64,000 nucleotides of DNA. Source: Octopus vulgaris. Its lineage: Eukaryota. The notes below the pieces were generated by a model. The model had not been told where the DNA came from. It saw nothing but the letters and a program-made list of their open reading frames with translations, and did not search any database. How positions within the stretch are numbered: position 1 is the stretch's first letter; each line of letters starts with the position of its first letter. The position numbers and the translations under genes were made by a program. The stretch lies in NCBI GenBank assembly GCA_951406725.2, contig OX597823.1, forward strand, positions 24,738,001 through 24,802,000, given 5' to 3'. Positions 4,298 to 35,500 of the stretch are shown piece after piece.

Positions 4298-7200
4298 TAC
4301 ATTATATACATCTACATGAATACATATATATATATATATATATAGGGAAATTTAATAAGGAGATGAACTTTCAAGATGTTGTTAAATCATTTTTATCTTG
4401 AATTCTTCTACATGTCTTCCAACGGATATACTCCAAAATGTCCAACAGGATAAATTATTGTAAGCAATGCATCAATCTCATCAAGAAGGATATACATAAC
4501 AAACTCATCAGACAGACATGTTAACAGAAATAGAAAGTCCTATCATACGTAACATATTTATATTCATATGCACACACTTGTAAACACTCAAATATTTGAC
4601 ATGTAAATATAAACATTTTATACCTACTAAAAAACACAAATGTATACAACCCCACCACACATACACATTATATACAGGTACATGCATAGATATATACATA
4701 CAAGTATGATGTATGTATTTATATCTGAATGCAAATTTCTTCTGTCTGATTCACTCAATACTATTTATTGTAATATTGCCATTTCCACCTAATTCTCATC
4801 CTCCTCTTAAGATCCACATAACATTCATATCGGTTTCTCTTTTCAATTCCAGTTTACTCAAATGTTAGCTGTGAAACTCCGAAAGATATTGCTCATACAT
4901 CAAAGTCCTACAATTCCACCAACTATAGATCTGAGGTGACCTATACTTGTCCAGGGGGAGAAAAGTTCAAGTCAATTTGTGGAAAGGACAACAAATGGAC
5001 TCCAATGATATCTCTTTGTAAAGGTAACATAAATAGCTCCTCTTTTGTTGTCTCTAGATAATTTTGTTTACTTTCTATAATAAATGTCTTTGTCAGGGGA
5101 AAACTGGTTGACTCAATATTAATTTTCTAAGTGTCTGTGGTTGGTATGTGGAAAACATTTCCACAAATTATGCAACATTAATTCTACCCAAGGGCCAGGT
5201 AATGCTATGAAATTGGGTGATGTGTTAAGTCTGCCAAACAAAAGCTGGAAGTGTAGAAACTTGTCACAAACAAGCTTCCAACATAGAGTCCATCAACCAG
5301 ATTTCATGCACAAAGCTTAGTTGTGAAGCAAATTCTTAACCTCAGACAAAACTATGCAGCTGTTAGGTAAACTTCTTACCTCTATAGCTATTCCTTGATA
5401 AATCTTGATAGTTTTTTTCTCTTAATTTCTAACTTAACCTTTTGCACCCTTGCTTTCTATTGTCATCCTAATCATTTTACAATATAATTCCATGGGTCCT
5501 CATTTCATAAAACTCGGCAGCCCTTTAAAACGACTTCTGAGACACTTGTTATTTTCCAATTCATACCCTTTAATTATATTATTAATAATAATGCTTCTTG
5601 ATTTATACACAAAGGTAAGTTTTGATGGGAGCTGTTTAGTCAACACCATCAGCCTTATAACTTGATGTAGACATTATGTCATTGACCGCCAACAAGTATG
5701 AAAGGCAAAGTGAACTCTGGATTCATTTGAACTGATATCCAAAAGTGCTGAAATACATAATTTAAAGCATTTCTTCCAATTCTCTTATTAGTATACATTG
5801 ATAATAATGTTGAAGATGATGATGCAAAATTCTTGGGTTTAAATGGATGTCAGTCTAGGGTTAATTGAAGAACCCCCATCATTGAACATTAGGCTCATCT
5901 CTCAGGACAAATGGGGAGTGTGAGGCAATTATTGGGATGGAACTCCCAAGATGAATGTTTACTCCAATTTTTGTAACCTAAACTACAGGTTTATGCACTG
6001 TGGTCCCTATCCACTCTTCCTTATCATTCTTATCTGTTTTACAAGTGTTACTTTATGACCAAAATGGAAAGTCCCAGTCATTAGATCTTTCAACTTCATC
6101 CACTATTTTTGCTATAGCTACTAGATAGCAAAACTGCCTTTTCTTCACTGTTAAAATAAGTACCAGGGTCGATAAAATCAGTACCATTTGAACACTGGGG
6201 TCTATGTAATCAACTTACCTCACTTCTGAACTTGCTGGCCTTGTGCCAAAATTTGAAACCCAAATTATTATTCTTGTTGTATTTCATTGGCCTAAATTTT
6301 ATTCTATGTCTAGATTTTAAGAATCAATTTGTGGAAGTAAATGATTCATTGCTTGATGTACCTGCAAAAAAATTGTGGAAAAAGAAAAACGTTACAGCAG
6401 AAGCCTGTGCAAAAAAATGTTTCTCTGATAAAAAGTGTTTATCATTTGAAATAAGCAAAAGAAGTGGAAAATGCTTCTTATCAAAGAACACTGCAGCTAC
6501 CTCCAACAAATTAAAGGCAGCCAAAACCAGAAATTACTACCAACGAATAAAACGTAATTATCCTTTGTATTTTATTACTGGAACTAGCTGGCCCCATGCC
6601 ATCAAAAATCACGGCTAATTGTTGTATTTTATATAGATATAAGGTATATAATAATCACATATACAAAAATTCATATACTTCCTTACTACATGCGCACACA
6701 TGTACACATATACTCACACAGCACTGAAATGTTATTTGATTTTTGTTTTCAGCATTAAATGTTCATTCACACATACAAACATTCACATTTTGCCATCACT
6801 CCTTCCTTCCTTATTCATTTATCACCTCTTTCTTCCTTTCTCATTCATATGTTGTGATGGAGAAAAACACAAGATTACAAGAGTATTATTATATCACCAT
6901 CTCACTTCCATTGCACACACACACTCACACAAATATTCACATACTTCCCTTTTTACATATACACACATAATCACACAGAGTTGAAATGCTGTTTGATTTT
7001 TTTCACCCCCCTTCCTTATTCATCTATCACCCCTTCCTTTCTCATTCATATGTTTTGACAGAGAAAGACACAAGAGTATTATTATAGTAGATTATTGTTG
7101 TTTTTACTCAGGTTTGGTCCTATTCCTAACAGTATTTATGTGGGTAGCAAGTACCACTTGTAACCTTAGGTATCCACTAGCTTTCAGTAGCCTTTCAAGT

Positions 7201-8240
7201 CTGGTAACTTTTTTGTACCACCTCGTGTAACTAATAGGCCATTTCAAAATTATACACTACATGCATTATAATATTTACTCTGTGTGTGTGTGTGCATGCA
7301 ACTGTTTTGAGTGTGGGTATAAAATTTACTCTTTGTTTTCTTTTTTCTTTCTAGCCAAAGATAGAAAAACTGTGCTTCGTAAAGTTAGCATACTTCAGCA
7401 AGATATTTTAAAACAGCTTCAGAATGTGAACTTAAAGAAGTGTAATGAAGCTTGCCATCAACATCCAGAATGTAATGCATTTGAGTACAAGAAGAGAGAA
7501 ATGGTCTGTGATTTGAGTAATGGGACTCATATGACTGATAAACTTAAACCCAATGATGGAAATGGAGATACTTATATCTTTGATAAAAGTGAGTAGAGTA
7601 TTTTCATTTTATTTTTATGTACATGCTTGTGTGTATCTTACATATTAAAATTGAAAATGTGTGTGTGTGTGTGTATTGGTTTGTCCTCATTTTGCACTAA
7701 AACGGCTCGACCGATTTTGTATGTATGTGGATGTATGTGTGTATGTTTATGTATGTATAAGTATGTACGTATTTATATGTGTGTATATCTATATATATAT
7801 ATATGTTTATATATATATGTGTGTATGTATATATATATATAAATTAGAAAAATATATATATATAAATTAGAAAATTTAAATTATACCATTTAGAAAAATT
7901 ACATATTATAGAAAGATTAAATATTAGATAAAACATATAACAATGATTCAGTAATGTGCAAAATAATAAATAAAACATATATATTTGGTATAAAATGTAT
8001 AATATATACATTTTATCTATTATTTTGCACATTACTTAATCATTGTTATATGTTTTATCTTATATTTAGTCTTTCTATGATATGTAATTTTTCTAAATGG
8101 TATAATTTAATTTTTCATTATTGAATTGATAAAAGGTGGATTTTTTTCTAATTTATATATATATATATTATATTTTGTGAAATTTGATTTAGTATTTCTA
8201 AATTGAATTTTTCCCTGTAAATTTGGAATAATATTCCTTC

Positions 8241-8284
<44 letters not shown>

Positions 8285-8547
8285 TGTATGTATGTGTCTA
8301 TATAGGCTGTGCCTTTCCACTGCCAGTATAGTGTATCTGCCTAAAATACACACACATTAGGATATTTGGACTTTTACTTATAGGAGTATGACTGATTACT
8401 TGTATATATATGAATACCTATATTTCTTTGAGTGTAGGCAACTCCTATATGTATGTAGGTGTATGTATGTGTATGGGTGTATATATGTGTATGCATGTGA
8501 ATCTGTCTACATTTGTATGTACCTGTGTAAATATGTATATATATATG

Positions 8548-8602
<55 letters not shown>

Positions 8603-8967
8603 AAAAAATATGTTAGTGTATATGTATTTTTATAAATGTGTGTATGGCTGTCCATGTATATATGTGTGTGTAATATATATGTATGTATGTCTATATATAT
8701 GTATGCATATGTATGTGGACATATATGTATGTATGCATGTAAGTGTCTATATATATATATGCATGCACTTAATTGTATATATAAATATATATTTGTAAAT
8801 GTATGTATGTGTATTTGTATATGCATATATCTATGTTTGTATATAAGTATATAGATGTATGTGTGTGTATATATATGTGGGTATATGTATGTATATATCA
8901 TAAAATAATATATACCTGAGTGTCCTGTTATGCAAGTTAGAAATCATATAAACTTTTTTTAAATGTC

Positions 8968-8999
<32 letters not shown>

Positions 9000-11900
9000 T
9001 GTATGTATGTATGTATGTACGTGTGTATGTATGTATGTATGTATGTATGTATGTATGTATGTGTGTATGTGCATAGGTGCATATATGCCCATCTGCTTGT
9101 ATATAAGTATCAAATGAGCAATATCAGATAACAATATCAAGCTGTATTGTCATAAGTCAGTTGTATTTCCCTTGGGTAAATATCAGCAGCATGAAGTGAA
9201 GAGACTTACATGTCTGGCCAACTGCATATTTTCCTCAAAATGTCTTGCATATGTTCAGAGGAAGAGTTGACTAGTCTACCTTGACTGCAGGAGGCCCTAT
9301 TAAATAAACACTTATGCAACTCTGTGTGTGTGCATACGCGTTTCATCCTCATCATCATCTTTTAACATTCATTACTCTATGCTGGCTGGCATGGATTAGA
9401 CTTTCTGACTGGAACCAGCCAGAGAGGCATGGTCAACTTCAATGTCAGCTTTGGCAGGATTTCTATAGTTGGATGCCCTTCCCAACACCAGCCACTTTAC
9501 AGATTGTGTTGGATGCTTTTGTTCTGGCACCAAGTATATGCAAAACAAGACCTCCTCATCTGAATGGGGATTAGTACTGAAGAATGTGAAAATATGATAG
9601 AGGAACAGGAAAAATTGTCTTACTGAAAAGGTGAATACAATTGCTTTGCTTGATGGAAAGAGGAAGAGAGATGGTGAGGATGCATTCTGAAGACAAAAGG
9701 TGAATATGAGTGATAAAAATAGAGGAGCAGAAAAGGTGGGCGAGTAGGTAAGTGTACACAGCATATTGCCATTCATCATGGTCCTTTGTCGTCTCCATGA
9801 AACTCAGGATCTTGAGATCAGCCTTCATTACTTCATCACATGTATTCCAGGATCTCCCCAACCATAAGTTCCATCCATTTTAAGTGACTTTGCACTTCTC
9901 TGTGCAGCTGTATTCATCCATGTGCATCACATGACTATATCAGCAGTCTTATTTCTTACACACAACATCTGATTCTTCTTATGCCTAATTATTTGCACTT
10001 TCTAAACATGCACACTGATCTTGCACATTCTTTGAAGTACTTTATCTCTAGTTTTTTCATATGCTCTAGATATATGGCCGACATCTCACTGCCATGTATT
10101 ATAGGTGGTCATATACAAGCAATATACAATCTGCCTTTCTCTCAGAGAGAGAGAGATTTTGTTGCCAAAGATGTAATTGCTCTCTGAACTTTTTCCATCT
10201 TATCCTTAGTCTAGCAACTACACATGCAGAACATTCTCCTCTACTGCTAATTAGGTCACCAATGTTACAGAAACTATCAACAACTTCTAGAGAGCCTTCT
10301 GGTCATCATCATCATCATCATCATCAACGTTTAATGTCTACCTTCTATGCTGGCATGAGTTAAATGGTTTGACAGGAGCTAGCCAAGCAGGAGCCTGCAC
10401 TGTTGCTTCTGTGTCTGTTTTTGGCATGGTTTTTATGGCTGGATGCCCTCCCTAACACCAACCACTCTGTAGAGTGGGTTGAGTGCATTTTACATGACAC
10501 TCACACAGGCAAGGTCAGTTTGGCATGGTTTTTACAGCTGGATGCCCTTCCAAATGTCAACCACTTTACAGTGTGGACTGGGTTCTTTTTAAGTGGAACC
10601 TGCACCAGTGGGGATCACCAAGTGAATTTGCAATTCAAAGAGTCTTTGAGAGCAGAAGGAGCATTGGAAGAGATGACCTTGTGTCAGAGGATGAAAGATT
10701 AGAGAGGCAGAAACATTTGTCTTGCTGCAGAGGAGGTCCATGGTTACCCAGCAAGAGAGAGAGAGAGGGAGATGAAGAGAAGAGAGAGAAAGCGAGCAAG
10801 AGTTAGCGAGAATGAGGGCAGAAACAGTTGCCTAGAGAGAGAGAGGAGTTAACAAGAAAGAAGTGTACTGTCGCAAAGGAGAAATATGGTTACCTAGCCA
10901 GAACAAGAGAAAGAAGGGGAGAGAGTGATCAAGAATGAGGGCAGAAACAGGTTTGTTGCTGTAGGAGAGATACATGATTACTCAGCTGGACAAAAGAATA
11001 AGGGAAAGAAGAGAGAGAGAGTAGGAGACAACAAGAGCAGGAGAGGGGTGGCGGCAAGTGTGTCAGGGTATACTTGCAAGGAATGGGTATCAGGGCATAG
11101 ATGGGATGGTAGAGTAAGGAAGAGGAGTGGGGGTTAGAATGGGGAATGCAGTGACTGGTGAGAATCTGGGTATATAGAGGACGAGAGGGAGGGGGAAGTA
11201 ATGATACAGTGAGTAGGGTTGTGAAGACTGGATTGAAGTGTGGAAGATAATCATAGTGTATGAAGAAGAAATATGAGGAAGAGAAGAGAAACAGTTTGGG
11301 AAGTGGGGGATGTAGTTTAGTTTGTTGGCCCAGAGTGTATAAAAGTTTTATTGTTACATGTGGATGGGACATAACGCTTCTAGAATTCAGGTTCCCTGAT
11401 GTAGGTGGGTCTTCTCTAGAATTTCATATTGCCAGACATCTCGGTCCAGTGTCAGTTCATCACTGTACTCATGGCCAACTCTCACCTTACTAACAGCCCC
11501 TCTGTGCATGGTTTTTATGGTTCTAACAAACTACTCCTCTACTCTTAACTTCCTGAGAGACCACCATATAACAGAGTGTAGGACTGTCAAAAACATCTCC
11601 AGGTTGATGAAAGCTAAGTGAAGTGGCTTAATCTTGGCCAAATACTTTTCCTGCAGCTGTCTCACTAGGAAGATGGCATCTGTAGTACTCTCCCCAGGTA
11701 CAAAACCAAACTGTATCTCATTTAGTGTAATTCTATTCTTAATCGGTTGAGCTATGACTCTCTCTGTAACTTTCATGACCTGGTTTAATACCTCTGTAGT
11801 TGTTTCTATTTAAGGCATCACTTTTAACCTTGTAGCAGCTAACTATAATACTACACCAGTCATTGCTGTAGTAATATTATAGTTAGCTGCTGATTAGCTA

Positions 11901-14900
11901 TGCGAGTGACTAGGCTGTATCCCACACATCCAGAAATTTTTATCATCTTGGCAGTGACACCCAATGGTCCAGAGGATTTCCTTGTTTTCATATCCTTAAT
12001 TGCCTTATCTACTAATCTGCTATCAACTCTGATGGATGGTTCTTCAATTGGTTCAATATTTGAAAGACTCTCCTTCTCCTATTAATTTTCCACATTTAGT
12101 AGCTTTTTGTGGTAATAGAAAATCCACTTCTGAATTCCTGATTGTTCTTAATGTTTATTATTCCTGCACATCTGTCACAAAAACTACCTCCTTAGCTTGT
12201 TACGTTAAGGTTTAAGTGTCCACATTTACTACAAATTTATATTTGTTCATTAGAAGTGATAGAAGTTAAATTATTTTAGTTTTCCAAGACAAAACATTGC
12301 AAAATAGGTATTGTGAAGGGTTATAATCCATGCTATAACTAGCCACATTTATTTATTTGCCTTTACATTCTGAGTTCAAACCCCATTGGTTGTACTTCAC
12401 ATTTCATATTTCTGAAGTTGATAAAACCAGCTCTATTCAACTACTGAGTTTCATTCATTTTCATGAATCATTGCAGAATGTGTGGCTTTATATTTAGGTT
12501 AGAAACTGTTATCATAAATATTGGTAGCATCAACAATAATTATAAATATTTTTAACCCATGCCAGCATGGACAATGGACATTAAATGATGATGATGCTGA
12601 GTAGAGATGGATTGAGAGAATCATCAGAACATCAGACAAACTGTGTTGTGGTATCTTTGACTTCTGAGTTCAGATCTGGCTGATGTCAAATTTGCTTTGT
12701 CAGGGCCAATAAAATAAAATCCCAGTCAAATGTAGGGACCAATTTAACTGATTAACTCTTACCTTAAACTTTTGTCCTTCTTTCTACATTATAAATGAAA
12801 TTATTGTTGCTGTTTCTATTCATATAAATTTGTCTTTAATTCCAGTTGCTAAGAAAAATTTTGTGAAAGTAAGAAGTGGAACTCTGGATGTACCTGAAAA
12901 ATTGTTGTGGCATAGGGAAAATGTAACAGCAGAAGACTGTGCCAAAAAATGTTTTTCTGAAAAAAATTGTTTATCATTTGAAATGAATAAAGAAAATAGA
13001 AAATGTTACCTATCAAAGGAAACTGCAGCTGCTTCCAAGAAAATAAAATCAGCCAAAGACAGAGATTACTACCAACGAGTAAAACGTAATTACTCTTTAC
13101 GTTCCTCTTTTTCTGAAATTTGTGATTCCATTTGTACTTCATAATATATAGACAACCATTTGTGTAAAGACATTGACAGGTTTATCTATAAGGACAGATA
13201 TGGACGTGGTCCTCGAAAAGAAAAGCAATATTAGGAAATGTAAATTCTGTTAAGACATTCTCATACAGAATTTGTTCACTTTAAACACTTTTATGCATGA
13301 TTGAAGTTGTTTTTCATGCAGTGGTGGCTGTAAGAAAGGACGCTCTTATATTTCTTAAATCTGCATAGTAGTGGTGGTGGTGGTGGTGGTGGTGGCAGTG
13401 GTGGTAGAAATCACTTCAAACTTTGGTACAAGGCCAGCAGTTTTGAGGGGACAGTATTAGTTCATACCTATGACCCCAATTCTTGATAGATTTAATAATT
13501 TATCAAAATCAGAAGGATGCAAAATAGTTTTTCCTGGCAGTTTGAACTTGAAATGTAATGAGATGGAAGACATACTGCTAGGTAGCATAGCTTTTGCACA
13601 GTATCTTGCTATTTGTTGCTCTCCTCTGTAATCTGATACACAAAATAACAGAAGAAAATGATTATTTCCAGATTTTGGCATGATTATTATGGCTAGATGC
13701 CCTTCTTATCACCAACAATTTTACCACATGAAAAGAGTATATTTTTTCCATGTTACTAAATTCAAAGATGCTGTCTGCTGGAACTAAAGTGTTCTTCCAA
13801 AATAGATATGAATAATTCTATACTGTTAAGAAGGCAGCCAGTAAATTCACTCACACTGACCTCAAGGATTTTGTCTTTTATTATCATAACCCTTTTCTTT
13901 TTGATACCCAGAGTTTCAGAGTAAATTCACTAGATATAGTGACCTCATGAATCTCAGGGTGTCATCACTATTATGAATTTTCAGTGTCAAAAAGAGAACT
14001 CAGCCATTTATTTTTATATCTGTGAGGAACTTTAACAGGACCAAAGTCACCAACATACATCAATATTTATCTTGGGTACCATTAAGAAGTTCAAGCACAC
14101 TCACAGATCAGGTTCATATTACTTGAAATTGCCTACCAATTTCAAGTAATATGAACAACCATGCCATCAACAGACTCAGGAAGAACTTATTAGGATTCTT
14201 GAAGAAGTTTGATTTAAACTAAGGATTACTACAAATATACTACATTCTAGGAATTGGATATCACTTTAATTTTTAAGTCATTTATCACACAAAGTATGCT
14301 CCTAAAGAATGCCTAATAAGGAGAGCAGACACCTTCATAGAGATTTCAACACCTACTCCAAAAATATAAATGAAACACAGTAACTGGCATTTGTAAAAGA
14401 ATCTCCAATTTAACCTCAAAATAAGATATTTTAGACATTTTTTACAGTACAATAGAGTTTTAGCTAGTATTGGATTTAGTAAGAAGTTATTAAAAACAGA
14501 GCATTCTCCATATCCATACCTGAATAAAATAAGTATGATAAAAATAACTCAGTCTTCCCTTCAAAATAACTCAGTCCTCCCTTCAACCTACATAAATGTG
14601 AATTCAAGTATCTTAATTCTTAGGCACACTTAAGTATCACAGGCTTATGAATGGGCATAGTATTAATGTTTGTTACTCCTGTCTGGGTAGCATGTATTGC
14701 ATGTCACATAGGAAAAGCATGCACTTATTCAGACTTTATTCCAGGCACCTACCTCTAACTGTCAAAATCAATCCAATTTTCCACTGAGAGAATTCTGCAT
14801 AAGACAGCAGTATACAGAACAACTTCCACTCCACTTGATTGTTTCTAAATGAACTACAAGAGACTTACAACTAGTTACTTCAAGGAAAATTTCATGAAGC

Positions 14901-15149
14901 TTATATAATCTTTCATGTTCATGTATAGCAAAAATTCCACTTCATTGTTCTCTTTTTCTAGAGACTCCAGAAACAGAAAAACAACCAACCCAGTATAATT
15001 TCAAGCTTATACAACATACTCCGCTCCTTATGTACCAGAGGAATATAATTTCAATTTTTGTCTTTCTGGCTAAGCCATAGACAAAAAAAACACATACATG
15101 TGTATGTATACAAGTGGCAGGATTCGCTATATATAAATATATATATTTG

Positions 15150-15198
<49 letters not shown>

Positions 15199-18100
15199 CT
15201 ATGTAGCTGTGTATGTTTCAATGCTTGGATATATTGTTCTTGAGACTTTCCAACATTGCTTCACTCTAAATCAGACATTTTTTTTTCTTGAACTGAAAGT
15301 TTTAAATGCATATCATACTTACCTACCTGCCTGTATACATGTGAATCAACATACATATATACAGTCAGACAGACAGACACAAGTTGGTAGAAAACACTAG
15401 GCCCCTAGCTTACCCATATGTTATGTACAAGCTTTACAAAAGAATTATTTTATTTCAAATACTTCTGTGATGTTATATATTTAAAACTTTAGATAATATA
15501 AGTACCTTATAACTGAAATTTTTATTTTAAATATTTGAAAGTCATCTGGTTCATTATTTTCTAAATGGACAATTTATTATAAAAATAGAATCCATCCACA
15601 AAACTATTTTTTGACATGAGATATCCTTCTCAAAATTAGTACGAATTCTAGTACATCGTGAGACACACATGGAACCTTGCCTCACTGTTTTAGGTTGTAG
15701 CCAGTACATTTGTACACCCTTCTTCTGATAGTGTGCTTTTGTTTAAGATTAAATTACCATAAGGATACTTCACATGCTGGTTGTCCATCTTTTGAACTAT
15801 GTTTAGATTCAACAAAAGTACACCATTAGATAGGAATGCAGAAATGGATTACATGCAACTTAAATTTTGAAACAATATTTCAAATGAGCCTGAAGATGTT
15901 TTATATTAACATGAATTCTAACTAAGTTGTCATTTTGTGGATCAATTATTTATTTATAATGCAGGCATGTCCAACTCATGCCTGCATGGAAAATAAATGT
16001 TAAATGATTATGATAATGATGATGATTATGATGACAACGACAACCATTGAAAACAAATAATCCACCAAATGCTTTTTATATATAATATGCATGTGTAAAT
16101 ATAAAATGTCTTTTTTGTTTTCTTTCATTTCCTTTTTATTTAGCTGATGATGATGTTTTTACATTAAAAAAAACTGCCATACCAGGGACTGATTCATCTG
16201 ATCGGATTAAAGGAATCAGTTTAAAGGAGTGTGATCGTGCTTGTCTTCAAATTCCAGGATGTAAATCTTATGAATACCACGAAAAATATAGTTACTGTGA
16301 TCCAAGTAATAAAACTCACCTGACTTATGACCTTAAACCCAACGAATATGGATGGGATATACATATCATGAACCCAGGTCAGTGGAGTGTATTCATTTAA
16401 TTTTATGTGTGTCTGCATGCATGCATGTGTCATTTCATTTGCACATATGTATTATATGAATTGGAAGACAGCACACTAGAAGTCCTCTGCAATCTATCCT
16501 TAACATTTTTTTAATAAGTCTTTTATTACCTGAATACACCCCCACCCCTTATTCCCCATAATGACAGCAATTTTTCTCTTTTTCTCTCTTTGTTCCTTCT
16601 CTCTCTACTTTTCCTCTTACCCTTTGACCCTTAACCACACCTACTCTATCCATTATTTCAGTTCAACCTTACACCAAAACATTCATTGATTGTTTAAACT
16701 TGCTTTCTTTGTTTTGTCTCATTTTTTTTTTTTTTGTGTGTGTGTGTTACTGATTTTTCTATTCTTTTGAAATTCCTAACAACAATTTAAACTTCAGTGA
16801 GGTAATTTCAGTCTGATGACTACATACACTCTGAAGAGCTGTGGAGAGTTCACTATGTAATACTTATGTAATGAGCTTCAGCTATTTAAGAAACATATGT
16901 AGTTTACATGTTACTTGCTCCACTCCTTTAAATTTTGGATTAATATTCGCATTTTTAGCAGCATTAGTTGCTAGCAGTGAGTTGTATGGAAACTATCAGT
17001 GAGTTCTATGGAAACTATCAGTTTGGATTTGTGTCAAGGAGAAGCATCATCGATGCTATCTTTCTGGTGAGGCAATGGCAGGAGAAATACTTTGCCAAAA
17101 ATAAATCTCTGTTTCTGGCTTTTCTTGACATGGAGAAATCTTTTGACAGGGTTCCCCACTCCCTGATCTGGTGAGCAATGCAGAAATTAAGGATAGATGA
17201 GTGGTTATTGAGAGCTGTAGAAGCCATGTACAGGGATGCTGTTAGTAAGGTGGAAATGTTCAAGGAGCCTGAGATGACAGCAGTAGGGGACCAAGAGCTC
17301 AGAGCCATATAGGAGCATTGTGAGGATGACAGCCATGTAGACTCTGACTTTTGTGTTGATCTTAAGATGCTTGTTGTTCCACACTTGCTTGTGCAGTCTG
17401 CCAAATGTTTTGTTTGCCTTTGCAAGTCTGTTAATTTCTTTGTCGATACTCGCATCTGATGAAATGGTACATCCAAGATAAATGAACTGCTGTACTGACT
17501 TCAGTTCTGTTTCATTAATGGTGATGTGGGGCATCCTGTACTCTTCAGGAGGTGGTTGGAGTAGGACTTCAGTCTTTTTCAAGCTTAATTCCATCCCGAA
17601 GAGCTGGGCGGCCGCTGCAAAGCAGGAAGTGATGCGCTTCAGGGCTCATTCTGTGTGTGCAACAAGTGTGGCATCATCTACAAAGAGGAGGTCCTGGATC
17701 ACTTGCTCTTGTGTCTTAGTATGGGCCAGTAGGTGCTGGAGGTTGAAAAGACTGCCATCAAGACAGTACTTGATGTAGACACCGTCTTCAGCATTGAGGT
17801 CTGCAGTGGCCTGCTTGAGCATCATGCTGAAGAGAGTAGGTGCTAGGACACAGCCCTGCTTCATGCTGTTGTTGATGAGGAATGGCTCTAATATGTCACT
17901 ATTCAGGCGGACTTATCCTTGCTGGTCTTTGTGAAGCTGGATGATCATCAGTAGGAATTTTTGGGGACAGCCAAGTCAGTTTAGGATCTGCCACAGACCT
18001 TTCCTGCTCACAGTCAAACAGTTTTGTCAGATCCATAAATGTTACATAAAGTGGTTTATTTTGCTCTCGCCACTTTTCCTGGAACTGCCTGAGAATGAAA

Positions 18101-21100
18101 ACCATATCTGTTGTGCTTCTGTTGGCTCTGAAACCACACTGGCTTTCTAGAAGATATTTTTCGGCAATGGACAGACCAAGTCTGTTGAAGAGTAGACTTG
18201 CTAGAACTTTTTCTGCAGTGGAAAGCAGGATGATCCCCCAGTAGTTTGAGCAGTCTGACTTTTTCCCTTTGTTTTTATATATTGTAATGATGACAGCATT
18301 ACACTATATACGTGTATACATACATGTATATTTGTATGTATGTATTTATATCTGAATGCAAATATTTTCTATCTGATTCACTTAATACTTTTTCTTGTGA
18401 TATTATCATTTCTTCCTCATTCTTATTGTCCTCCTAAGATTCACATACCATTCATATCAGTTTCTTTTTCCATTTCCAGTTTACTCACTTATTAATTGTG
18501 GACCTCCAAAAGATATTGATCGTGCATCGACATTCTACAATTCCACCATTTATAGATCTGAGGTGACCTATAGATGCCAAGATGGAGAAGAACTAAAGTC
18601 AGTGTGTACAAAGGACAATAAATGGACTCCAGTAACATCTATTTGTAAAGGTAACATTAATAGCTTCTCTTTGTTGTCTCTGTCTAAGTAATTTTGTTTA
18701 CTTTTTGTAATAAATGTCTTTGTCAGAGGTTGACTCCATATTAATTTTCTAAGTGTCTGTGGTTGGTATGTGGAAAACATTTCCACAAATTATGCAATAT
18801 TAATTCTACCCAAGGGCCAGGTAATGCTATGAAATTGGGTGATGTGTTAAGTCTGCCAAACAAAAGCTGGAAGTGTAGAAACTTGTCACAAACAAGCTTC
18901 CAACATAGAGTCCATCAACCAGATTTCATGCACAAAGCTTAGTTGTGAAGCAAATTCTTAACCTCAGACAAAACTACGTTGCTGTTAGGTAAACTTCTTA
19001 CCTCTATAGCTATTCCTTGGTAAATCTTGATAGTTTTTTTTCTCTTAATTTCTAACTTGCCCTTTTGCACCCTTGCTTTCTATTGTCATCCCAATCATTT
19101 TACAATATAATTCCATGGGTCCTCATTTCGTAAAACTCAGCAGCCATTTAAAACGACTTCTGAGACTCTTGTTATTTTCCAATTCATACCCTTTAATTAT
19201 ATTATTAATAATAATGCTTCTTGATTTATACACAAAGGTAAGTTTTGATGGGAGCTGTTTAGTCAACACCATCAGCCTTATAACTTGATGTAGACATTAT
19301 GTCATTGACCTCCAACAAGTATGAAAGGCAAAGTGAACTCTGGATTCATTTGAACTGATATCCAAAAGAGCCGAAATACATAATTTAAAGCATTTCTTCC
19401 AATTCTCTTATTAGTATACATTGATAATAATGTTGAAGATGATGATGCAAAATTCTTGGGTGTAAATGGATGTCGGTCTAGGGTTAATTGAAGAACCCCC
19501 AACATTGAACATTAGGCTCATCTCTCAGGACAAATGGAGAGTGTGAGGCAATTATTGGGATGGAACTCCCAGGATGAATAATTACTCCAATTTTTGTCAC
19601 CTATACTACAGGTTTATGCACTGTGGTCCCTATCCACTCTTCCTTATCATATTTATTTATTTTACAAGTGATACTTTAAAAATGCATATGAGTGATTAAC
19701 CAAACTCTATCATTAGATCTTTTAACTTCATCCACCATACAATCATTTTGCAATAACTATTAGATAGAAAAATTGCCTTTTCTTCACTGTTAAATGAGAG
19801 GATGCAATAATTATCATTATGGACTTGGCTGACAAGTTCCCTCTCCCATACAACAGCAGCTGTTACCACAAGTCATCAATGTATGAACAATGAATAAGTG
19901 CATGCAAAATGATTTTGTTGCACTGCACACATCTCAGACAGCCGTGTTTGTTGGTCTTTCCATCAATTATTTATTCATTATTTAGTGACATTACCAGTCA
20001 TCATTAGAGGAAGCAATGAGACTATGTGATATTCATGTCTTTCTCAAGGGCAGTAACTGACTATGTAATGTAAACTAATTGAAACTGAGAATCAAACCCA
20101 GATCAAACACCACTCAGCCCATATTTATACTAAAAGAACAACTAGGGGATAAATACACATCGTCACTTCCTGCATAGAAAACAAATAATAAAGTGGCTAA
20201 TTATTGAAGCAGCAAGGTGCCACACATCTATCTCTATTTGTATTTATTCACTAGTTGAGATAAGAGGAAAATTATTTTTGTTGTCTCAGGTCAAACGTCG
20301 CAAAGAATAAAGTCATTAGTTATAGTCTTTGTCATGACTAACCATATTTAGTTACATTCTGGGTTCAAATCCCACCTGAATGAACATTAATCAAGTAGTG
20401 AGATCAATTTCTTCATATACATTCTCACCACAGACAGAGTGGCCTTGTGTTTAAGTTCAGAACTATTCTTTAATATCAGTGACATCAATAATAATTATAA
20501 TTATTCTTGTCGTTAAAGATGATAGATTGACAGAATCATTAGAGCATCAGAGAACATGTGCTGTGGCTGTGGTATTTTTTCTGGCTCTTTAATGCCTGAT
20601 TTCAAATTCTACTGATGTTAAATACAATGCCAATCAAGTGTAGGCGAACAATTTAATCAACCCTCTCCTACCACAAAGATTTAAGTTTCTTTCTATAATA
20701 GAAATTATTATCATTATTCTTATATTTCATTGGTTTAAATTTTATTTTAAATCTAGATGTTAAGAACAAATTTGTGAAAGTAAATGGTGCATCTCTTGAT
20801 GTACCTGGGAAAAAATTGTTGAAGAAGAAAAACGTAACAGCAGATGAATGTGCAGAAACATGTTTGTCTGATGAAAGTTGTTTATCATTTGAAATAACCA
20901 AAAGAAATGGAAAATGCTTCTTATCAAAGAAAACTTCAGATTCCATCAAGAAAATAAAAGCGGACAAAAGCAGGGATTACTACCAAAGAATTAAATGTAA
21001 TTATTCTTTGCATTTTATCACTGGAATTTTCTTTTCTGTTATTTCTGAAATTTGTGATTCCATTTGTACTTCATAATATATAAACAACCATTTCTGTTAA

Positions 21101-24100: not shown

Positions 24101-27100
24101 CAATGATGTGCCATGCCATTTTACCCCTCTCACCACATTCTGCTTTTGCTGTTATCACTATCAGTAGTGTTGTCTATTCTGCACTTCATATAGTTGGTCC
24201 TTAACCCTTGTTCTTGAACTGCGCATATGAGTACATCTCTATCTTTAGATCACTCCTCCTCATCCATAGCCACTGGTCCTCTGTATCTATCTTGGTGTTC
24301 ACATACATCTCTTGCAAAGTGACCATACAATTTCTTTTCTTTCCATGCTTTTTATTTTTTTATTTCTTGTTTAAATTTTTCTTTTCTTACTCAATTCTCT
24401 GTGTTGATGACGCCAACCTTCTTCATGTGTTTCAACAGTGGCTCCATGACATTCTCTTATATACCACTCTAAGCTGTTTTCCTTTGCTTCGATACAATCC
24501 TGGCAACTGATCAAACTTCTTCCATTCTTTCTTCTGGACAAGTACAACATATTGGTGTCACTCTTAGGATGGCAGGCTCTATGTGCTGCCAACACTTTTC
24601 TGGTCTTGGTATCCATTTTCTTCATTTTTCTCTTTTGCCATTTTATGATTCCTGCTCCATACCAAAGTGATGCTATCACCCACATATTAACTGCTTGTCT
24701 TTTATCCCATCCAGTCAATTTTGAGTGCAACACCAATGTCAATCTTCAGAAATACTCCATCCTCAGTTGTTCTTTCGTTTCCTTTTCCATTATCCCTTTG
24801 GACTCTAGTACAACAAGATATTTGTATTCTTCCATTTCGGTTTGTTTAATCAAGTCTCTATTTGGTTATTTTACCCTTGCTAGGGACTGTACCTTGCCTC
24901 TTTTTAGTTAGATTATTCCACACTTCTTGAGTCCAAATTCCATTCTAGTATCAATACTAAAACAGTGGACCATGTTCACCAAGGAACTCACTTGTGTCTC
25001 ATCTTTGCCATACAGTTTCAAATCATCCATGAAGATGAGGTGGTTGATTATTTGGGATTTTTCCTTTAGTTGGTACCCCAGGTTCATTTTCCTAAGTACC
25101 AAGGTCAGGAGTAACATGCAAAGGACAAATAGCAATGGAGATAGGTTACCACCTTGGAAAATCCATCTTCTGATACTCAGGGTGCCCAAGCTTTTTCCAT
25201 AAGATGTCAGTTCAGTTTTTCATCCCACCATATTTCTCTTCATGAAACATGTTACATTCCTCACAATTCCAAACAGATCTAAGCACTTGATAATCCATGA
25301 ATGTGGAATCATATCAAGCTTTGCAATAGTCAATCTAAGCCATTCCCAGATTTGTTCTCCTTCATTGTTCTCTTGCATTACCATTTTGTCTATCAATAGT
25401 TGATCTTCAGCACCTCTGCATCTCCTTCTACAGCCTTTTTGCTCTGTCAGTAATATATTGTTCTTTCTGCGGTTCCTCCTGATTGTAACTTCCACATTAA
25501 TTGTAAGCAGGAAATTGGTCTGTCATTGTAAGCAGCATTTCCCTTTGATGCATCCTTCAGGCACAGCACCATTCATCCTTTTGTCAACCAGCCATGGATT
25601 TCTCCTTCTTCTTATCATTATTATTGATTTGACTCAGGCTTTGTCTTATTCTTGGCAGTATTTTTGTGGGTAATGGATACAACCTGTAACCTTAGGTATC
25701 TACTAACTTTCAATAGTCTTTCAAGTGTGGGGAGTTTTTGATATCACCTCATATGATAGATATACTATTTAAAAAAATTATGTGATGCATGCATCATGTG
25801 TTGAGTGTGTGTGGCGGGGTATAAAATGTACTTATTGTTTTCTCTTTTTTTTTTCCTTCCAGCTGATGATACGAAAATTAAGCTTTCTAAAGTTAGCGCA
25901 CCTGGACATAATGTTTTAAAGAAACTTCAGAATGTGAACTCAAAGAAGTGTAATGAAGCTTGCCTCCAACATTCAGAATGTAATTCTTATGAGTACAATA
26001 AGAAAGAAAAGGTCTGTGATTTGAGTGATGTGACTCATTTGACTGATAAACTTAAACCCAATAATGGAAATTGGGATATTTACATCATTGATACAGGTCA
26101 GTAGAGTATTACCATTTTATTTTTATATGCATGTCTGTATATCTTTATATATATGTATATGAGTGTGTCATATATATATATTTGAAAGCATTGGCAATGA
26201 TAAATCATATTACAGTACTTCAGACTCGTGGAGTGCTGTTCTAAAAGCATTTCATTTATGCTTGTGCATGCCAGGCCCTGCCCCTAAACTAATTCTGCTT
26301 CATCAAGCATTCCCAAATCTCATTACACTAACCCACCCGAACACCCATCCATTCATTATTTCTCTATTTGTAGCACTAATTGGCACCTGTAATGACTTGA
26401 GAGCAGAATTTGCATATATCATTTCCCCCATCCATTCTTTGTACTACCAGGTTCCTCCTTCCCTTCCCCCATCCCCTACTGGTACCACTTCCATCCTTCA
26501 TTCTTGTTACCTTCCCTTCCTACATTATTGACATTGGTCACTTCCTGTCTGCCACTTCACTTCTCTCTCCCTCTTCTCTGCCAAACTCCATCATAACACC
26601 TCACATATCTGCTATCAGCCAACCATAAGTACCTCAATATCTCTTTCTCCACTACTCCTACACTTTGCCCTTCCCCCCTCATCTTCTGACATCTTCCTAA
26701 GCCACATCTATCTTTCTCATCTTATACCCTCTTCATACTGACATTACCCATCAACTGCATATTCACCTTTGTTCATCACTTACTACGTTCACTTCTAGCC
26801 TCATCTGTTTCCATCATTTGCTCTCCCCTCACTTACTTATAAAATTACTTGCCCCTTTCTTCCTCCTCACTGATCCTCTGTATATATCCTCTCTTATACG
26901 CAACTTGTAAATTGTGAATTTTAATCTGGCGACCATTCACTACCATTTTTATTTTCTTCCTAGCTACACTCATCTACCCTTTCATAATGTGAAAATGTTA
27001 GCCATGCACCTATCATGTGTGTGTGTGTTTAGAAGTTTAAAAAGTAACACACATTGATATGTATAACAAAAATAAAACAAGGTAGAAAATGCTAAAATAA

Positions 27101-30100: not shown

Positions 30101-32452
30101 CGAATTTGATTTTGATTTCACTTGCCTCAACAGGTCTTCGCAAGCAGAGTTTAGTGTCCAATGAAGGAAAGGTATGCATAAGTGGACTGGTTACACCCCT
30201 GGCATTGGCCACAAGGTTATGGTCTCACTTGGCTTGCTGGTTCTTATCAAGCCCAGCATATTTCCAAAGATCCCGGTTACTAGTCATTGAGAAGAAAATG
30301 CATACATTCATACATACGTACGTACATACATACATACATACATACATGCATACATACATATATACATACATACATACATGCATACATACATTTTTATACG
30401 TGTGTTTGCATCTGTGTATGTATTTGTCTTTGTGAGCAGATGTCTTCAGATTATTACGCTCAATACTTTTCATCGTAAGATTGTCATTAACTCCTTATTC
30501 TCACCCTCCCCCAAACATACTCTCACCATTGACACCAGTTTCTTCTTTCAATTTCAGTTTACTCCGAAGTTAACTGTGGACCACCAAAAGACATTGTTGG
30601 TGCTGACAAGTCCTACAATAGCACCTCCTATAATTCTGAAGCGACCTACACTTGTCCAGAAGGAGACAAACTAAAGTCAAAATGTAAAAAGGATAATAAA
30701 TGGTCTCCAGTAAATTCTACATGTAAAGGTAATGTAAATAACTTCCTTTTTGTTGTCACTGTCAGGGTAATCTTATTTTATTTTTGTGCTAAATGTCTTT
30801 GCCAGAGGAAGTCAGCTGACTCTTTGACAATTTATGCAGTGTTTGTAGCTGGTGGAAGAGACAAAGGAAGTTGTCCTCAGACCAGATACTTCCCAAAATG
30901 CTTGCAACAGAGTGGACATCATTAATTCTATCCTAGGGTAAAGTATTAAATTGGGTGACAGATTAAGTCTCTCAACAGAAAATTTGAAATGTGATGGTCT
31001 GTTCCCTCCAGCAGATATCCATAGTTTCCATTTACCAGATTTCATCCTTAATTCCGAAGCAAATTTTTAACAAACTTTTCATCACATAACTAAGATTCTA
31101 CCCAGGACCACAGTATTTTGAAGTATTGTTCTTAACCTCATAGTCATACTGAGGATGTCTATGTAGATCTCTTAATTTCCAACCTAACCTTTTTCCCTTG
31201 TACCATGTATCCTCATCCAAAACTCTGTGCAATATAATGCTCCTAAGTCCTTCCTCACTAAAATTCAACAATCTTTTGAAATAGCCTTCCAATACTCTAA
31301 CAATTCTTCTAATCTACCACCCTTAATTATAATAAATGCAATTAATATCAATGATGGGTTTCTTTTAATTTATTCACAAGGCCAAGAATTTTTGATGGCA
31401 GGAGTTTAGACTTTTCCCTTGACTTCAGTACCTGAATAGTACTGACTTTTATCAATCCCCAAATGGATAACAGGCAAAGTTGACCTTTACTGGATTTGAA
31501 CGCAGAGCATAAAGAGCTTAAATATACAATGTTACAGATTTTTGCCAATGTTCTAATGATTCTTTGAGTGAACAATTCTTAATTATAAAAATATTAACAA
31601 TTATTAACATATAAAAGCAGATGGTATATATTTAAAAAGAAATGATGATGATAACAACAACAGTGATGACACCAATGATGTCATGAACAATGATAGCACC
31701 ATCAATAACAAGGGTGCCATCAACAATGACAATGGCAAGGACACTGACAAATCCACCAACAACAATGTTCATGGTGCATTCCTGCAAATACAGGAGGACT
31801 CTTCTCTATGGCTTATCAAGAAATCCCATGGTCCAAAATCACTGTATACACTGAGTAGATATATCCTCACCAATTGTCATCCTCTGACCTACAACCTCAT
31901 ACAGATTTGTCCCAATAACTCTTGTAAATTTTGCCACTTACACACACTTATGATTGAATTTACCCTTCCCACCCTCACTTTCATTTACAAGTGAAACTTT
32001 AAAACACAATGAATTATCAACCAAAGTTACAATTGGACATTTCAAACATCCACCTCCAACTTTCTTTTTTATGGCTTCACGAATATAACATCATAAATTC
32101 TAGATCTATGATAGAATGCATTCAGTATATTTTGTAATATATGTAGTAAATTAGTATTGAGATCACAGTGTTGAGAGGAACTTTATTCTTGTCTTGACCA
32201 CAGTATGATGACAACCTATGAAATACTGGTGCCATAATTAAATACACCTTGTACAATCTGTTAAGTAGTTGGTGTTCAGAAGGGGATCCAGCCAAGAAAG
32301 TATGCCAAAATAAAACATACAAGTGAGAAGTGCCCCCGATTTCTGACCAGGGTTTGAGGGGCAGTAACTTTGAATAAAAACTGACTCAGATATGACAAGC
32401 TGTCTAGTCCTAGCCAGCATCATGGAAAGAGGACATAAAATGATAATGATGA

Positions 32453-32500
<48 letters not shown>

Positions 32501-35500
32501 GGTTTTATATGTGTGTTGGTTTCTTGATACAAACAGGAAAAAATAGGGCTCAAAAGACAAACATATAAATTGATTTTTAACTGCAGAACTTGTGTGTGTG
32601 GGTGTCTCCCCACATGTTCAGATCATCACTTCTGATGGTCAAATCATTGTCAGAGTCTTCTCTTTTGCTCATTCCATCTTATTCCTCTTATACTTAAATT
32701 TTTCCTCAACACATTTGCACTTTCTATGCATGCACAATAATGTTGCACATTCATTAGATCACACTAGCTCCATTTCCTCTCTAGTCTTTGTACATCTTCT
32801 GTATTTATGGCCTTTCTCTCACTGCCATGTATTGTAGGTGATGATACACAAGTAACACACAATCTGCCTTTCACTCATAGTGAGAGACCTTTTGGTGCCA
32901 CCAGAGCTTATAGCTTTCTGAACTTTCTCCATCTTGTTATTCAACTATACATACTTAACATCCTCTTCCTCTGCTAATTAGGTCACCAAGTTAAGAGAAA
33001 CCATTTACAGCTTCCAGGGAACCTCCTGGGAATTCGAGAAAATCCAGTTCCTGTGTGTTTATTGTTTCTGCACATCTGTCACGTACAAAGACATCTTTCT
33101 TGGTTAACATTCCTGTGATTCCAGTGCATCTCTGATGTGTCCATATGTCGCACTGGGTACACCATATGGAATTCCTACCAACACCTTTCCTATATATTGG
33201 GCAGAGCACGCACATAATATACATGCAGTATTGATATCAATTTCTGTTCTCAATTTCAGCTTATGCAAATATTAACTGCGGAACTCCAAAGGAAGTTGTT
33301 GGTGCATCAAAGTCCTACAAAACAACCACCTATAAATCTGAAGTGACCTATACTTGTCCAAAGGGAGAACAACTAAAGTCAGTATGTGAAAAGAACAATA
33401 AATGGACTCCAGTGGTAGAAGCCTGTGAAGGTAACGCAAATAGCTCATCTACTGTTGTTTCTGTCTATGTAATTTTGTTTTATTTTTATGTTAAATGTGT
33501 TTGTCAGTGGAAGACTAACAGAATGCATACTAAGTTCTATTGTGCTTGTGGCTGATGATGAAGGAGAACTTGTTATCCTTGGATCAGAGATCTCACAAAT
33601 GCTTGCAACAGAGTGGACGTCATTAATTCTACCCAGGGGCCAGGTGATGGTATTAAACTAGAGAATGGATTAAGTCCAGGAAACAAGAGTTGGTAGCTTA
33701 GAAACTTGTTCTTCTCCTGCAAGCTTTCACATAACTTGTATCCACTATATTTCATTCCCAAGGCTTAGTTGTGAAGTTAATTTTTAATCATGCAGACAAA
33801 ACTCCACCCTCCTCGATATTGTTGTAATCTTATTACCTCCAAATCTTGATGGATATTCTCTTAATTTCTAACTTGATTTTTCTCACCCATTCTTTGTGGC
33901 ATCCTGCCTGTTAAGTGGGGATAAATATAATGTATGAGTTCTTCTTTACTAAAACTCTGCACTTCTCTGAAACAGTCTTCTGATGTTCTTGTTATCTTCC
34001 AATCCACCCCCCTTAATTATAATATTGCTACTAATAATAATAATAAAGATTTCTGATTTAGTCACAAACCAATTATTTCTGACATCATATTCATTACCAT
34101 CGTCATTTAACAGCTGTTTTCTATACTCACATGGCTTGGATGGTTTGACAGTGTCCAGTGAACCACAGAACTGCATCAAGCCCCAGTTTCCACAACTGGA
34201 TAACTTTCCTCACAGTAACCACTTTACAGTGTGTACTGGATCCCTTTCCTTGGTATTAGTAAGGTCACCATTAACTTGCAAGACAAAATAAAGGAAAATG
34301 AAGAAGTCCCCTTTTGAGAAAGAAGGAGCTACATTTGTGAAGGATAAAGTATAACAGAGGGAGGAGCATAGGTGTTTTACTATAGAGGGAATACATGTTT
34401 ACTCCATGTTATATGAGGGTGGGTGAGAGTAGCTGAAAGAGAGATAAAATTTGTGATGTTAAGGTGCCAGATCTCACTTTCAAGGCACAAGAAGGTTAGT
34501 ATAAGAAAGAATATAGACAGTTGATCAAGAGGGAAGGAAAGGGTGGATAATTTAATAAGAGTATGGGAAGAGAGTGTCAGATGGTTAGAGATTGGGCTAG
34601 AGGTAGGTGTAGTGAGGGATGAAAAAGGGTGAGTGTTGTTGATGGTAAATATCAGTATGGTGGGGAAGTTGAAAGATAGAAGTGGCTCAAGAAAGGCGGG
34701 GATGACAAGCAGCATCACATGAGAATTGGAGAGCAGCAGTATCATATATGAGTGGAGAAATGAGAAAGTAAGGAGATGACATGCAGTCGTTACCACACCC
34801 AATGTAGAATTCCTCACCATCCAGGTGACAGGCACAGCCGTAAGATGCATTACAAATCTATAGCAATTGGAAGGGCATGACCCAACTAAAATAAACATTA
34901 ACAACTGTGTGATGTGAGGGCTAAGGAGAAATGAAAGTGTCACCTCTGGAGTTTGCAAATGACCACTATACTGATACGTAACTGGACAGAATAAATTTAC
35001 AATCTATAAATGTTTTTGAATAACCAGTCACTCATCTGGGAAGGCCTTGAAATCAATGTTAGCATCTGGGGACTATGTGTGACCGAGTGATAATAGAAAG
35101 ACTGAAAGGAGGTCTGCAATCAAATAACTTTACTCAACACTTTGCAACTGATGCAAAGATACCTCTCAATTACTCGACAATTTATGCACCACATTGCAGA
35201 AATCCCAATGTAAGTGCATGTCAAAGCAAACTGTTACACTGTTGTACCATTGAATTAAAAATAGTGCTCAAATTTATGCTCGGGTAACCCTACAGCTTCC
35301 AAGAGCACAACTGTATTCGTTTTAGCTTAAATAAAATGACAAAATTGTGGGTGTTAAGTCCCCATGGAGGGGTCTTTCTAACTTGTAAGAAGATGAAACT
35401 TTATAAATATTACTTCATTTGTGTTTAATATCTATGGTTAAAATTTCATCAACAGCAAAAATATATGAATTGTCATGGGGGTTATGAACCTTATGCATAG

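Follow-up and report, generated by a model that had tools for sequence, protein, structure and literature searches.

Why should a coding exon differ between two copies far more than the intron that adjoins it? This question is raised by a stretch of 64,000 nucleotides (nt) of Octopus vulgaris DNA (GenBank assembly GCA_951406725.2, contig OX597823.1, positions 24,738,001 to 24,802,000 of the forward strand), hereafter the window, from whose first letter positions are counted unless they carry the prefix C10. Two of its exons, S1 (4853–5023, + strand, 171 nt) and S2 (18480–18650, + strand), are exons 280 and 285 of a larger array; both have phase 1-1 and AG/GT splice sites, and both match Pfam Sushi above cut-off. 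An earlier note, made from the sequence alone, had attributed the contrast to positive selection on the Sushi module and/or to a gene-conversion tract of ~0.9 kb that stops short of the exon. The conversion half of that interpretation is upheld by the tract itself, and the half that concerns positive selection is not supported for the S1/S2 pair. The explanation regarded here as probable is that S1 and S2 are copies from an old five-exon duplication whose intron was re-homogenised by gene conversion, and that the predicted product of the locus around them is a single secreted PAN/Sushi chain with a GON end.

Divergence of the S1 and S2 exons

Over the 168 nt that form the full codons of S1 and S2, the hand count of the earlier note was reproduced exactly, with 36 differences, 21 amino-acid-changing codons and 4 purely synonymous codons. 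This tally of 21 to 4 makes the excess of replacements look too large: once codons with multiple hits are resolved by Nei–Gojobori counting (NG86), the 36 differences split into 11 synonymous and 25 nonsynonymous ones. The proportions of synonymous and nonsynonymous sites that differ (pS and pN) are 0.28 and 0.19, and the corresponding distances (dS and dN) are 0.35 and 0.22, which gives a dN/dS of 0.64.

The surroundings of the exon are just as diverged on one side. The upstream intron (4700–4852) differs from its copy at 29 of 153 positions (19%) and the exon at 36 of 171 (21%), two values that do not differ from each other (p = 0.68). The first 74 nt downstream of S1 carry 6 differences in 72 positions plus insertions and deletions, and the segment 6027–6157 carries 17 in 122. 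The pN of 0.19 is at the level of the upstream intron and not above intron divergence, and dS matches both the older upstream intron (19–24%) and the adjacent exons of the duplicate (pS 0.21). With an upstream intron that is equally diverged, the exon forms no peak of divergence, and positive selection on the Sushi module of this pair is not borne out; a dS equal to the older intron divergence together with a dN/dS of this size is the combination that the earlier note had itself named as speaking against its reading.

The neighbouring exons tell the same history. The order PAN-A (A) 278, PAN-B (B) 279, Sushi (S) 280, A281, B282 is followed by A283, B284, S285, A286, B287, which makes a five-exon duplicate (all exons on the + strand). 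Exon B279 (1252–1485), in the first block, differs from its partner B284 (16144–16377) with pS 0.21 and pN 0.17, and A281 (6314–6553) differs from A286 (20757–20996) with pS 0.21 and pN 0.16. For A278 and A283 (12846–13085), the latter of which opens the second block, pS is 0.15. The blocks end with B282 (7355–7588) and B287 (25863–26096). Among the other 171-nt Sushi exons, the nearest relative of S1 or S2 is 34 differences away, so none is close. The S1/S2 exon is thus an old copy and not a fast-evolving one, like its upstream intron and its sister exons in the duplicate. Because the exon, the upstream intron and the duplicate neighbours are all equally old, the anomaly is the young tract rather than the exon.

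At position 4891, one sequencing run (X1) carries a G>T change in codon 13 of S1, a replacement of Ala by Ser relative to the assembly.

The near-identical intron tract

The tract after S1 (5098–6026, + strand) is 97.2% identical to the copy after S2 (18728–19648, + strand), with 26 differences in 922 aligned sites (2.8%). The near-identical stretch that the earlier note had described is therefore real, and its count of one difference over the first ~230 nt fits, since 5176 is the sole substitution between 5116 and 5354. Its remark that the upstream intron is more diverged than the tract also holds (29/153 vs 26/922). Compared with three pooled upstream segments (71/396), the difference is strong (Fisher p = 8e-20), and the homologous sequence on either side is ~7-fold more diverged than the tract. 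The tract ends ~75 nt from the exon. It is highly probable that the tract is a patch copied by gene conversion between two old repeats. The contrast between exon and intron at S1/S2 is, taken alone, ordinary gene conversion, and it carries a warning: an intron more conserved than its exon is no evidence of positive selection unless the other flank and dS are considered.

Between the end of the tract and the PAN-A exon lies a very high-copy short repeat (6162–6303, depth 10^5–10^6). It is absent at the S2 position and represents an insertion near the break in homology.

Could the tract instead be a functional intronic element that selection conserves? In line with this idea, homologues can still be made out after about 40 other Sushi exons, but they are only 65–80% identical (65–72% for the copies found by the tract search behind other Sushi exons). 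The tract itself contains no long open reading frame (ORF) and no Rfam match near the gathering score, and in a second organism (E, below) it is ~7% diverged from the window, the same as the exons, which suggests a neutral intron divergence between species. Conservation of this kind is very improbable. The tract is no dispersed repeat or transposable element either: its search returned 42 matches, all inside this array, and no scored candidate lay in another part of the genome.

Tract copy number in sequencing runs

Repeat arrays are prone to assembly error, and the near-identity could in principle stem from misassembly or from two insertions of a young transposon. Contigs from four public runs were aligned to positions 4600–6700 of the window, that is, to the S1 unit only; one run, X7, was too shallow for use. 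In run X4, the tract contig has a depth of 79.2 vs 50.6 over S1, a ratio of 1.57x, where two copies as assembled predict 1.56x. In run X1, the depths are 89.6 and 48.8 (1.84x), and the tract contig shows 0 differences from the S1 version over 659 nt; two types of copy would be expected to give 1.57x and three S1-type copies out of four 1.79x, in contigs that are merged, so that the X1 depth is only a hint that conversion segregates. The check for an artefact thus found the tract at two-copy depth in two independent runs, X1 and X4, in both of which the contigs over S1 are at single-copy depth, unlike the tract. The two copies also differ at 26 sites, and the matches are confined to the array, as described above. 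Either form of this alternative is extremely improbable.

Run X15 comes from organism E, a species ~7% diverged from the window. Its letters differ from the window at 33 of 467 positions over S1 and the upstream intron and at 18 of 254 over the next exon. Two pieces of the tract were found at depths of 28.4 and 29.5, vs 13.5 for the exon contigs, and they differ from the window at 14 of 188 and 10 of 158 positions; over 5131–5261 there are two contigs, each with a 12-nt gap. The two tract copies of the window are thus 2.8% apart, whereas the organism E pieces, merged contigs at twice the depth, are ~6–7% from the window. By this indirect measure, both organism E copies are closer to each other than to the window, a signature of concerted evolution. 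The tract was apparently homogenised separately in this species.

Probable conversion across the array

Self-comparison of 1.64 Mb of the array gave 633 matches of at least 250 nt at at least 88% identity; 128 are at homologous positions, and many cover exons. For a comparison across the array, 31 disjoint exon pairs were chosen in which a window on one flank, the anchor, differs by no more than 6%. On average, divergence is 0.025 in the anchor, 0.077 (126/1648, pS) and 0.078 (370/4736, pN) in the exon, and 0.121 in the far flank (27 alignable), and it grows with distance from the anchor. Crossing an exon makes no difference relative to remaining in the intron (23 paired, p = 0.66). Because steps across exons and steps within introns diverge alike in these pairs, exons are no general barriers to conversion. 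A pattern like that of S1/S2 occurs in only 2 of the 31 pairs, S11/12 and S280/285 itself. A further set of 16 disjoint "sandwich" pairs (intron 534/9127, pS 58/859, pN 168/2483) was not used because its members had been chosen on intron identity and are biased.

A true peak of divergence is found outside the window. Exon S238 (C10:24,553,600) differs from S251 at 17 of 165 positions, with flanks at 1.4% and 3.7%, and 8 of the 17 changes are private to S238 among six paralogs. It is the best single candidate for positive selection within the array. Inside the window, positions 30298–31333 and 60874–61902 form a 1.04-kb stretch that is 94% identical and holds Sushi exons 288 (30558–30728, + strand) and 296 (61127–61297, + strand), which differ by 9 replacement changes and 1 silent change.

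Selection on the repeat domains

In close pairs across the array, pN equals pS although the cysteines are frozen. Pairwise codon site models that allow for synonymous-rate variation and double hits were fitted, under two frequency models, to disjoint pairs (44 Sushi, 39 PAN-A and 26 PAN-B). For Sushi, a class of sites with omega above 1 gave likelihood-ratio test (LRT) values of 8.2 and 7.6, with omega 1.5–1.6 at 40–54% of sites, and 0 of 12 null simulations exceeded an LRT of 2.5. PAN-A gave 7.8 and 3.5 (omega 1.2–1.3), and PAN-B 3.6 and 1.6, which is not significant. Naive codon site models had given LRTs of 14–120; these were set aside as largely artefact, since null simulations that included mosaic pairs, double hits and variation in rate already reached 3–22. 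Constraint on synonymous sites, for instance by splicing enhancers, could also yield LRTs as small as those of the robust models.

As the alignments read, about 10–18% of sites would be fixed and most would drift near neutrally; for the surfaces of Sushi domains, mild positive selection is a plausible reading, not a secure one. Because there is modest array-wide evidence at some Sushi sites, the idea of positive selection survives for the whole gene and not for S1/S2.

These results bear on the reading in which selection keeps S1 and S2 apart, either by removing conversions that enter the exon or by driving the exon apart after a recent duplication, as venom genes would suggest. The Sushi class with omega above 1, the PAN-A values and the replacement excess of exons 288 and 296 all favour it, as does the apparent homogenisation of the tract in two lineages whose S1 and S2 exons remained different. 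However, the S1/S2 exon shows no peak and a dN/dS below 1, the tract ends before it reaches the exon, exons are no barriers in the 31 pairs and only two of those pairs resemble S1/S2, the naive tests were mostly artefact and PAN-B is not significant. Selection of this kind is an improbable cause of the S1/S2 contrast, and conversion between old copies is preferred.

Organization of the locus

Genome searches returned 134 matches for Sushi, 109 for PAN-A and 110 for PAN-B, of which almost all fall in a single cluster on C10, and the region C10:23,200,001–25,062,000 (1.862 Mb, gap-free) was taken for analysis. It contains 346 repeat exons, all on the + strand, with AG/GT splice sites, phase 1-1 and no stop; 343 of them encode exactly 4 cysteines and 3 encode 5. 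Pfam PAN_1 and Sushi were over cut-off in all seven exons scanned. The three repeat exons at the start are part of another, small paralog and are excluded from the gene statistics, which leaves a main array of 343 (133 Sushi, 105 PAN-A and 105 PAN-B) in the order A-B-S or A-B-S-S. No two of its domains are identical. Higher-order repeats of 13 exons (SSAB-SAB-SAB-SAB) occur in two zones, C10:23.66–23.92 Mb and 24.40–24.74 Mb, and point to recent copying; an 8/18/20-exon mosaic zone lies at C10:24.77–24.95 Mb, and the middle exons 106–200 are old and correspond one-to-one with O. bimaculoides.

Two small phase-1 leader exons (C10:23,362,495 and 23,363,457), which encode a signal-peptide-like leader of 28 residues and are conserved with the small paralog, precede the array. 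Three GON exons follow it, with PF08685 at C10:24,990,062, in frame to the stop; no further copy of the leader or of the GON end was found inside the array. An uninterrupted reading frame of 24,329 codons spans 1.635 Mb and 348 exons (2 leader, 343 repeat and 3 GON). With one start, one end and an unbroken frame, the whole locus is very probably one gene. The repeat part would have a mass of 2.72 MDa, an isoelectric point of 8.9, 14% lysine and 271 sequons; PAN-A carries a net charge of +7.4 per domain, and PAN-B is neutral and more glycosylated by prediction.

The small paralog (C10:23,269,800–23,288,900) consists of leader exons, PAN-A, PAN-B, Sushi and three GON exons, and its GON is 59% identical to that of the giant gene. 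The two are separated by exons at C10:23,310,000–23,331,000, which are presumably NDUFV1-like, judging from the peptide.

Within the array, a partial PAN-A-like (C10:24,195,884) and a partial PAN-B-like (C10:24,207,880) sequence were dropped from the count because they lack usable splice sites; these remnants are the only decayed modules found, at the one place where a duplication seems to have failed. PAN-B exon 140 (C10:24,093,500) has a strongly altered, shortened N-terminal half with its frame and splice sites intact, and O. bimaculoides protein P0010 carries the same odd domain at 82% identity. Of the 55 long ORFs listed for the introns, the ones that could be identified by eye are retroelement-like or simple repeats; for instance, a retroelement-like reverse-transcriptase frame (42850–43670; C10:24,780,853) lies in the intron before exon 292. 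The remaining exons of the window, all on the + strand, are Sushi 289 (33260–33430), PAN-A 290 (38727–38966), PAN-B 291 (40028–40258), Sushi 292 (45237–45407), PAN-A 293 (49340–49579), PAN-B 294 (52351–52584) and Sushi 295 (56775–56945).

Other Octopus species and public records

The exon order is shared with O. bimaculoides, in which P0004 tracks exons 144–200, P0001 exons 106–125 and P0007 exons 335–345 plus GON, in order apart from a few out-of-order best matches. P0007 has the same GON end (86% identical between the two species), and a scan of it found PAN, Sushi and GON plus a weak MBD overlap. Over 77 orthologous exons (at least 70% identity), 896 of 5036 non-cysteine residues (18%) differ, vs 1 of 309 cysteines; judged from these alignments, the non-cysteine residues would change at about the neutral rate between species. 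In O. sinensis, P0008 matches exons 171–206 at 98–100% except for one poorly matched unit.

Public fragments of the locus are named as uncharacterised, SVEP1-like or ADAMTS20-like, and on the O. vulgaris fragments the SVEP1 and ADAMTS20 names are similarity labels. Those residues of P0003, P0005 and P0006 that fall beyond the mapped exons belong to parts of PAN domains or to short ends. The locus is hidden because its annotation is fragmented in all three Octopus species. The openly accessible literature, subscription papers and closed supplements apart, yielded no description of it, and the main text of the cephalopod and venom papers examined held no passage on GON; ESM Atlas matches were all under 0.9 and are leads only.

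Mechanism and predicted product

The exons and their order in two species, the open frame, the pattern of divergence and the constraint on cysteines are observed; the mechanism proposed to account for them would run as follows. After the five-exon duplication, both blocks would have drifted until they were ~20% apart, their flanks being lost through insertions. One intron island of ~930 nt would have stayed similar enough for continued pairing and conversion, the exon and upstream intron being already past the point where conversion extends into them. The array as a whole would have grown by unequal crossing-over, as its 13-exon higher-order repeats suggest, with patchy homogenisation.

The product would be a very long, disulfide-stapled, lysine-rich and glycosylated chain of beads, in which strongly basic PAN-A alternates with neutral, more glycosylated PAN-B, and which may serve as a scaffold in the extracellular matrix or in a gland secretion. 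At a few nanometres per domain, it would by our own estimate be roughly a micrometre long. Selection is proposed to keep the cysteines, the frame and the splice sites and to free the surface residues because the chain works in bulk; the rate at which those residues change would then be near neutral or a little higher. Proteins and glycans are the ligands of PAN and Sushi modules, and a multivalent scaffold or cross-linker is therefore the most likely role. That such a scaffold or cross-linker acts in matrix or gland secretion, with no single domain surface mattering much, is offered tentatively. The all-phase-1 exons would also permit shorter isoforms by exon skipping.

Whether a near-full-length product exists is an evenly balanced question. 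Slightly less can be said for the complete picture, in which a single secreted protein of ~2.7 MDa and a micrometre in length, with 343 PAN/Sushi domains, grew from a small coleoid gland-type Sushi-GON protein, had its surfaces diversified by selection and shuffled by conversion, and is tunable in length by exon skipping.

A cassette system offers another view of the product: one start and one GON end would be combined with a limited and changing choice from the 343 exons to give many medium-sized secreted variants. Any subset keeps the frame because all 343 exons are phase 1-1, residues diversify quickly in domains that are all non-identical, and there are small relatives in which GON accompanies just one module or a few. 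However, the strict A-B-S order and the 13-exon repeats, conserved between species, fit a chain read in order better. Alternative-exon pools usually sit in clusters of the same type, as in Dscam. The cassette system is unlikely; it concerns the product only and is compatible with conversion as the explanation of the tract.

Several points count against the preferred explanation, that of old copies with a re-homogenised intron in the gene for one secreted chain. The single 348-exon transcript is a prediction from genomic DNA, and the models in public records divide the locus among fragments of 380–4470 amino acids (aa). The leader was located by homology to the small paralog, a hydrophobicity scan did not flag its exon, and the signal peptide was judged by eye, with a weak hydrophobic core. 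The evidence from the runs comes from contigs that merge near-identical copies, with 40 of 222 difference rows and X1 read to 76%. Finally, the exon exceeds both flanks in 3 of 24 close pairs (S238/251, p = 0.005; A308/328, p = 0.004; A298/328, p = 0.04), in p values that are uncorrected and from pairs that are not independent.

If the picture of a single chain is true, the protein would be among the largest extracellular proteins of animals, and if the gene is transcribed whole, a titin-scale secreted protein larger than Dumpy. It raises the question of how a message of 73 kb and a disulfide-rich chain of 2.7 MDa are made and secreted. The 343 domain copies with alignable introns also allow conversion, unequal crossing-over and selection to be measured directly.

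Comparison with known systems

The closest small relatives are secreted PAN/Sushi-GON proteins of molluscs and coleoids, including cuttlefish GON-Sep-2 (UniRef R4FJA6 cluster) and the paralog at C10:23.27–23.29 Mb. They share with the giant locus Sushi and/or PAN modules, a C-terminal GON (46% identical over 186 aa to P0020) and a signal peptide that is putative in the giant locus, and have about 290–360 aa and 1–3 modules vs 343. The GON-Sep name reportedly stems from a 2013 survey of the posterior venom gland by Ruder and colleagues; gland secretion is accordingly a lead, not a result. The locus resembles SVEP1/polydom in its Sushi repeats and ADAMTS20 in its GON domain. Unlike SVEP1 and the ADAMTS proteins, no vWA, EGF, pentraxin, metalloprotease or thrombospondin (TSP1) domain was recognised by accession in the precomputed Pfam lists of the public models P0001–P0007 (PF28171 on P0005 aside).

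The tract behaves like interlocus conversion systems, in which close tandem copies show patchy near-identity. In the account of Fawcett and Innan (2011; PMC3924837), conversion between copies continues until substitutions, transposable element insertions or large insertions and deletions stop pairing, and selection against conversion appears, in the passages on exon 5 of the red and green opsins, as a peak of divergence with low divergence on both sides. Unlike that peak, S1/S2 forms a step, with low divergence on one side only. Concerted evolution of domain repeats is described elsewhere as rare, and annotation as missing exons in such genes (PMC5100051).

Among giant proteins, Drosophila Dumpy has 78 coding exons, more than 300 EGF modules, a mass of 2.5 MDa, concerted repeats and alternative splicing (PMC2930355, PMC7266619). 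The octopus locus is like it in predicting a gigantic extracellular chain with more than 300 cysteine modules, one C-terminal domain and internal concerted evolution. Unlike Dumpy, which has EGF/DPY modules and a ZP domain, it has 348 exons with one domain per repeat exon, PAN/Sushi modules, a GON end and ~2.7 MDa. Titin, with 364 exons and 27,000–33,000 aa (PMC6892752), compares in scale (348 exons and 24,329 aa in octopus) and in super-repeat organisation; unlike this intracellular Ig/Fn3 protein, the octopus product is predicted to be secreted, disulfide-bonded and fast-evolving. Dumpy comes nearest as an analogue and titin in scale; the octopus locus is homologous to neither and adds a new, extreme form to the giant modular extracellular proteins.

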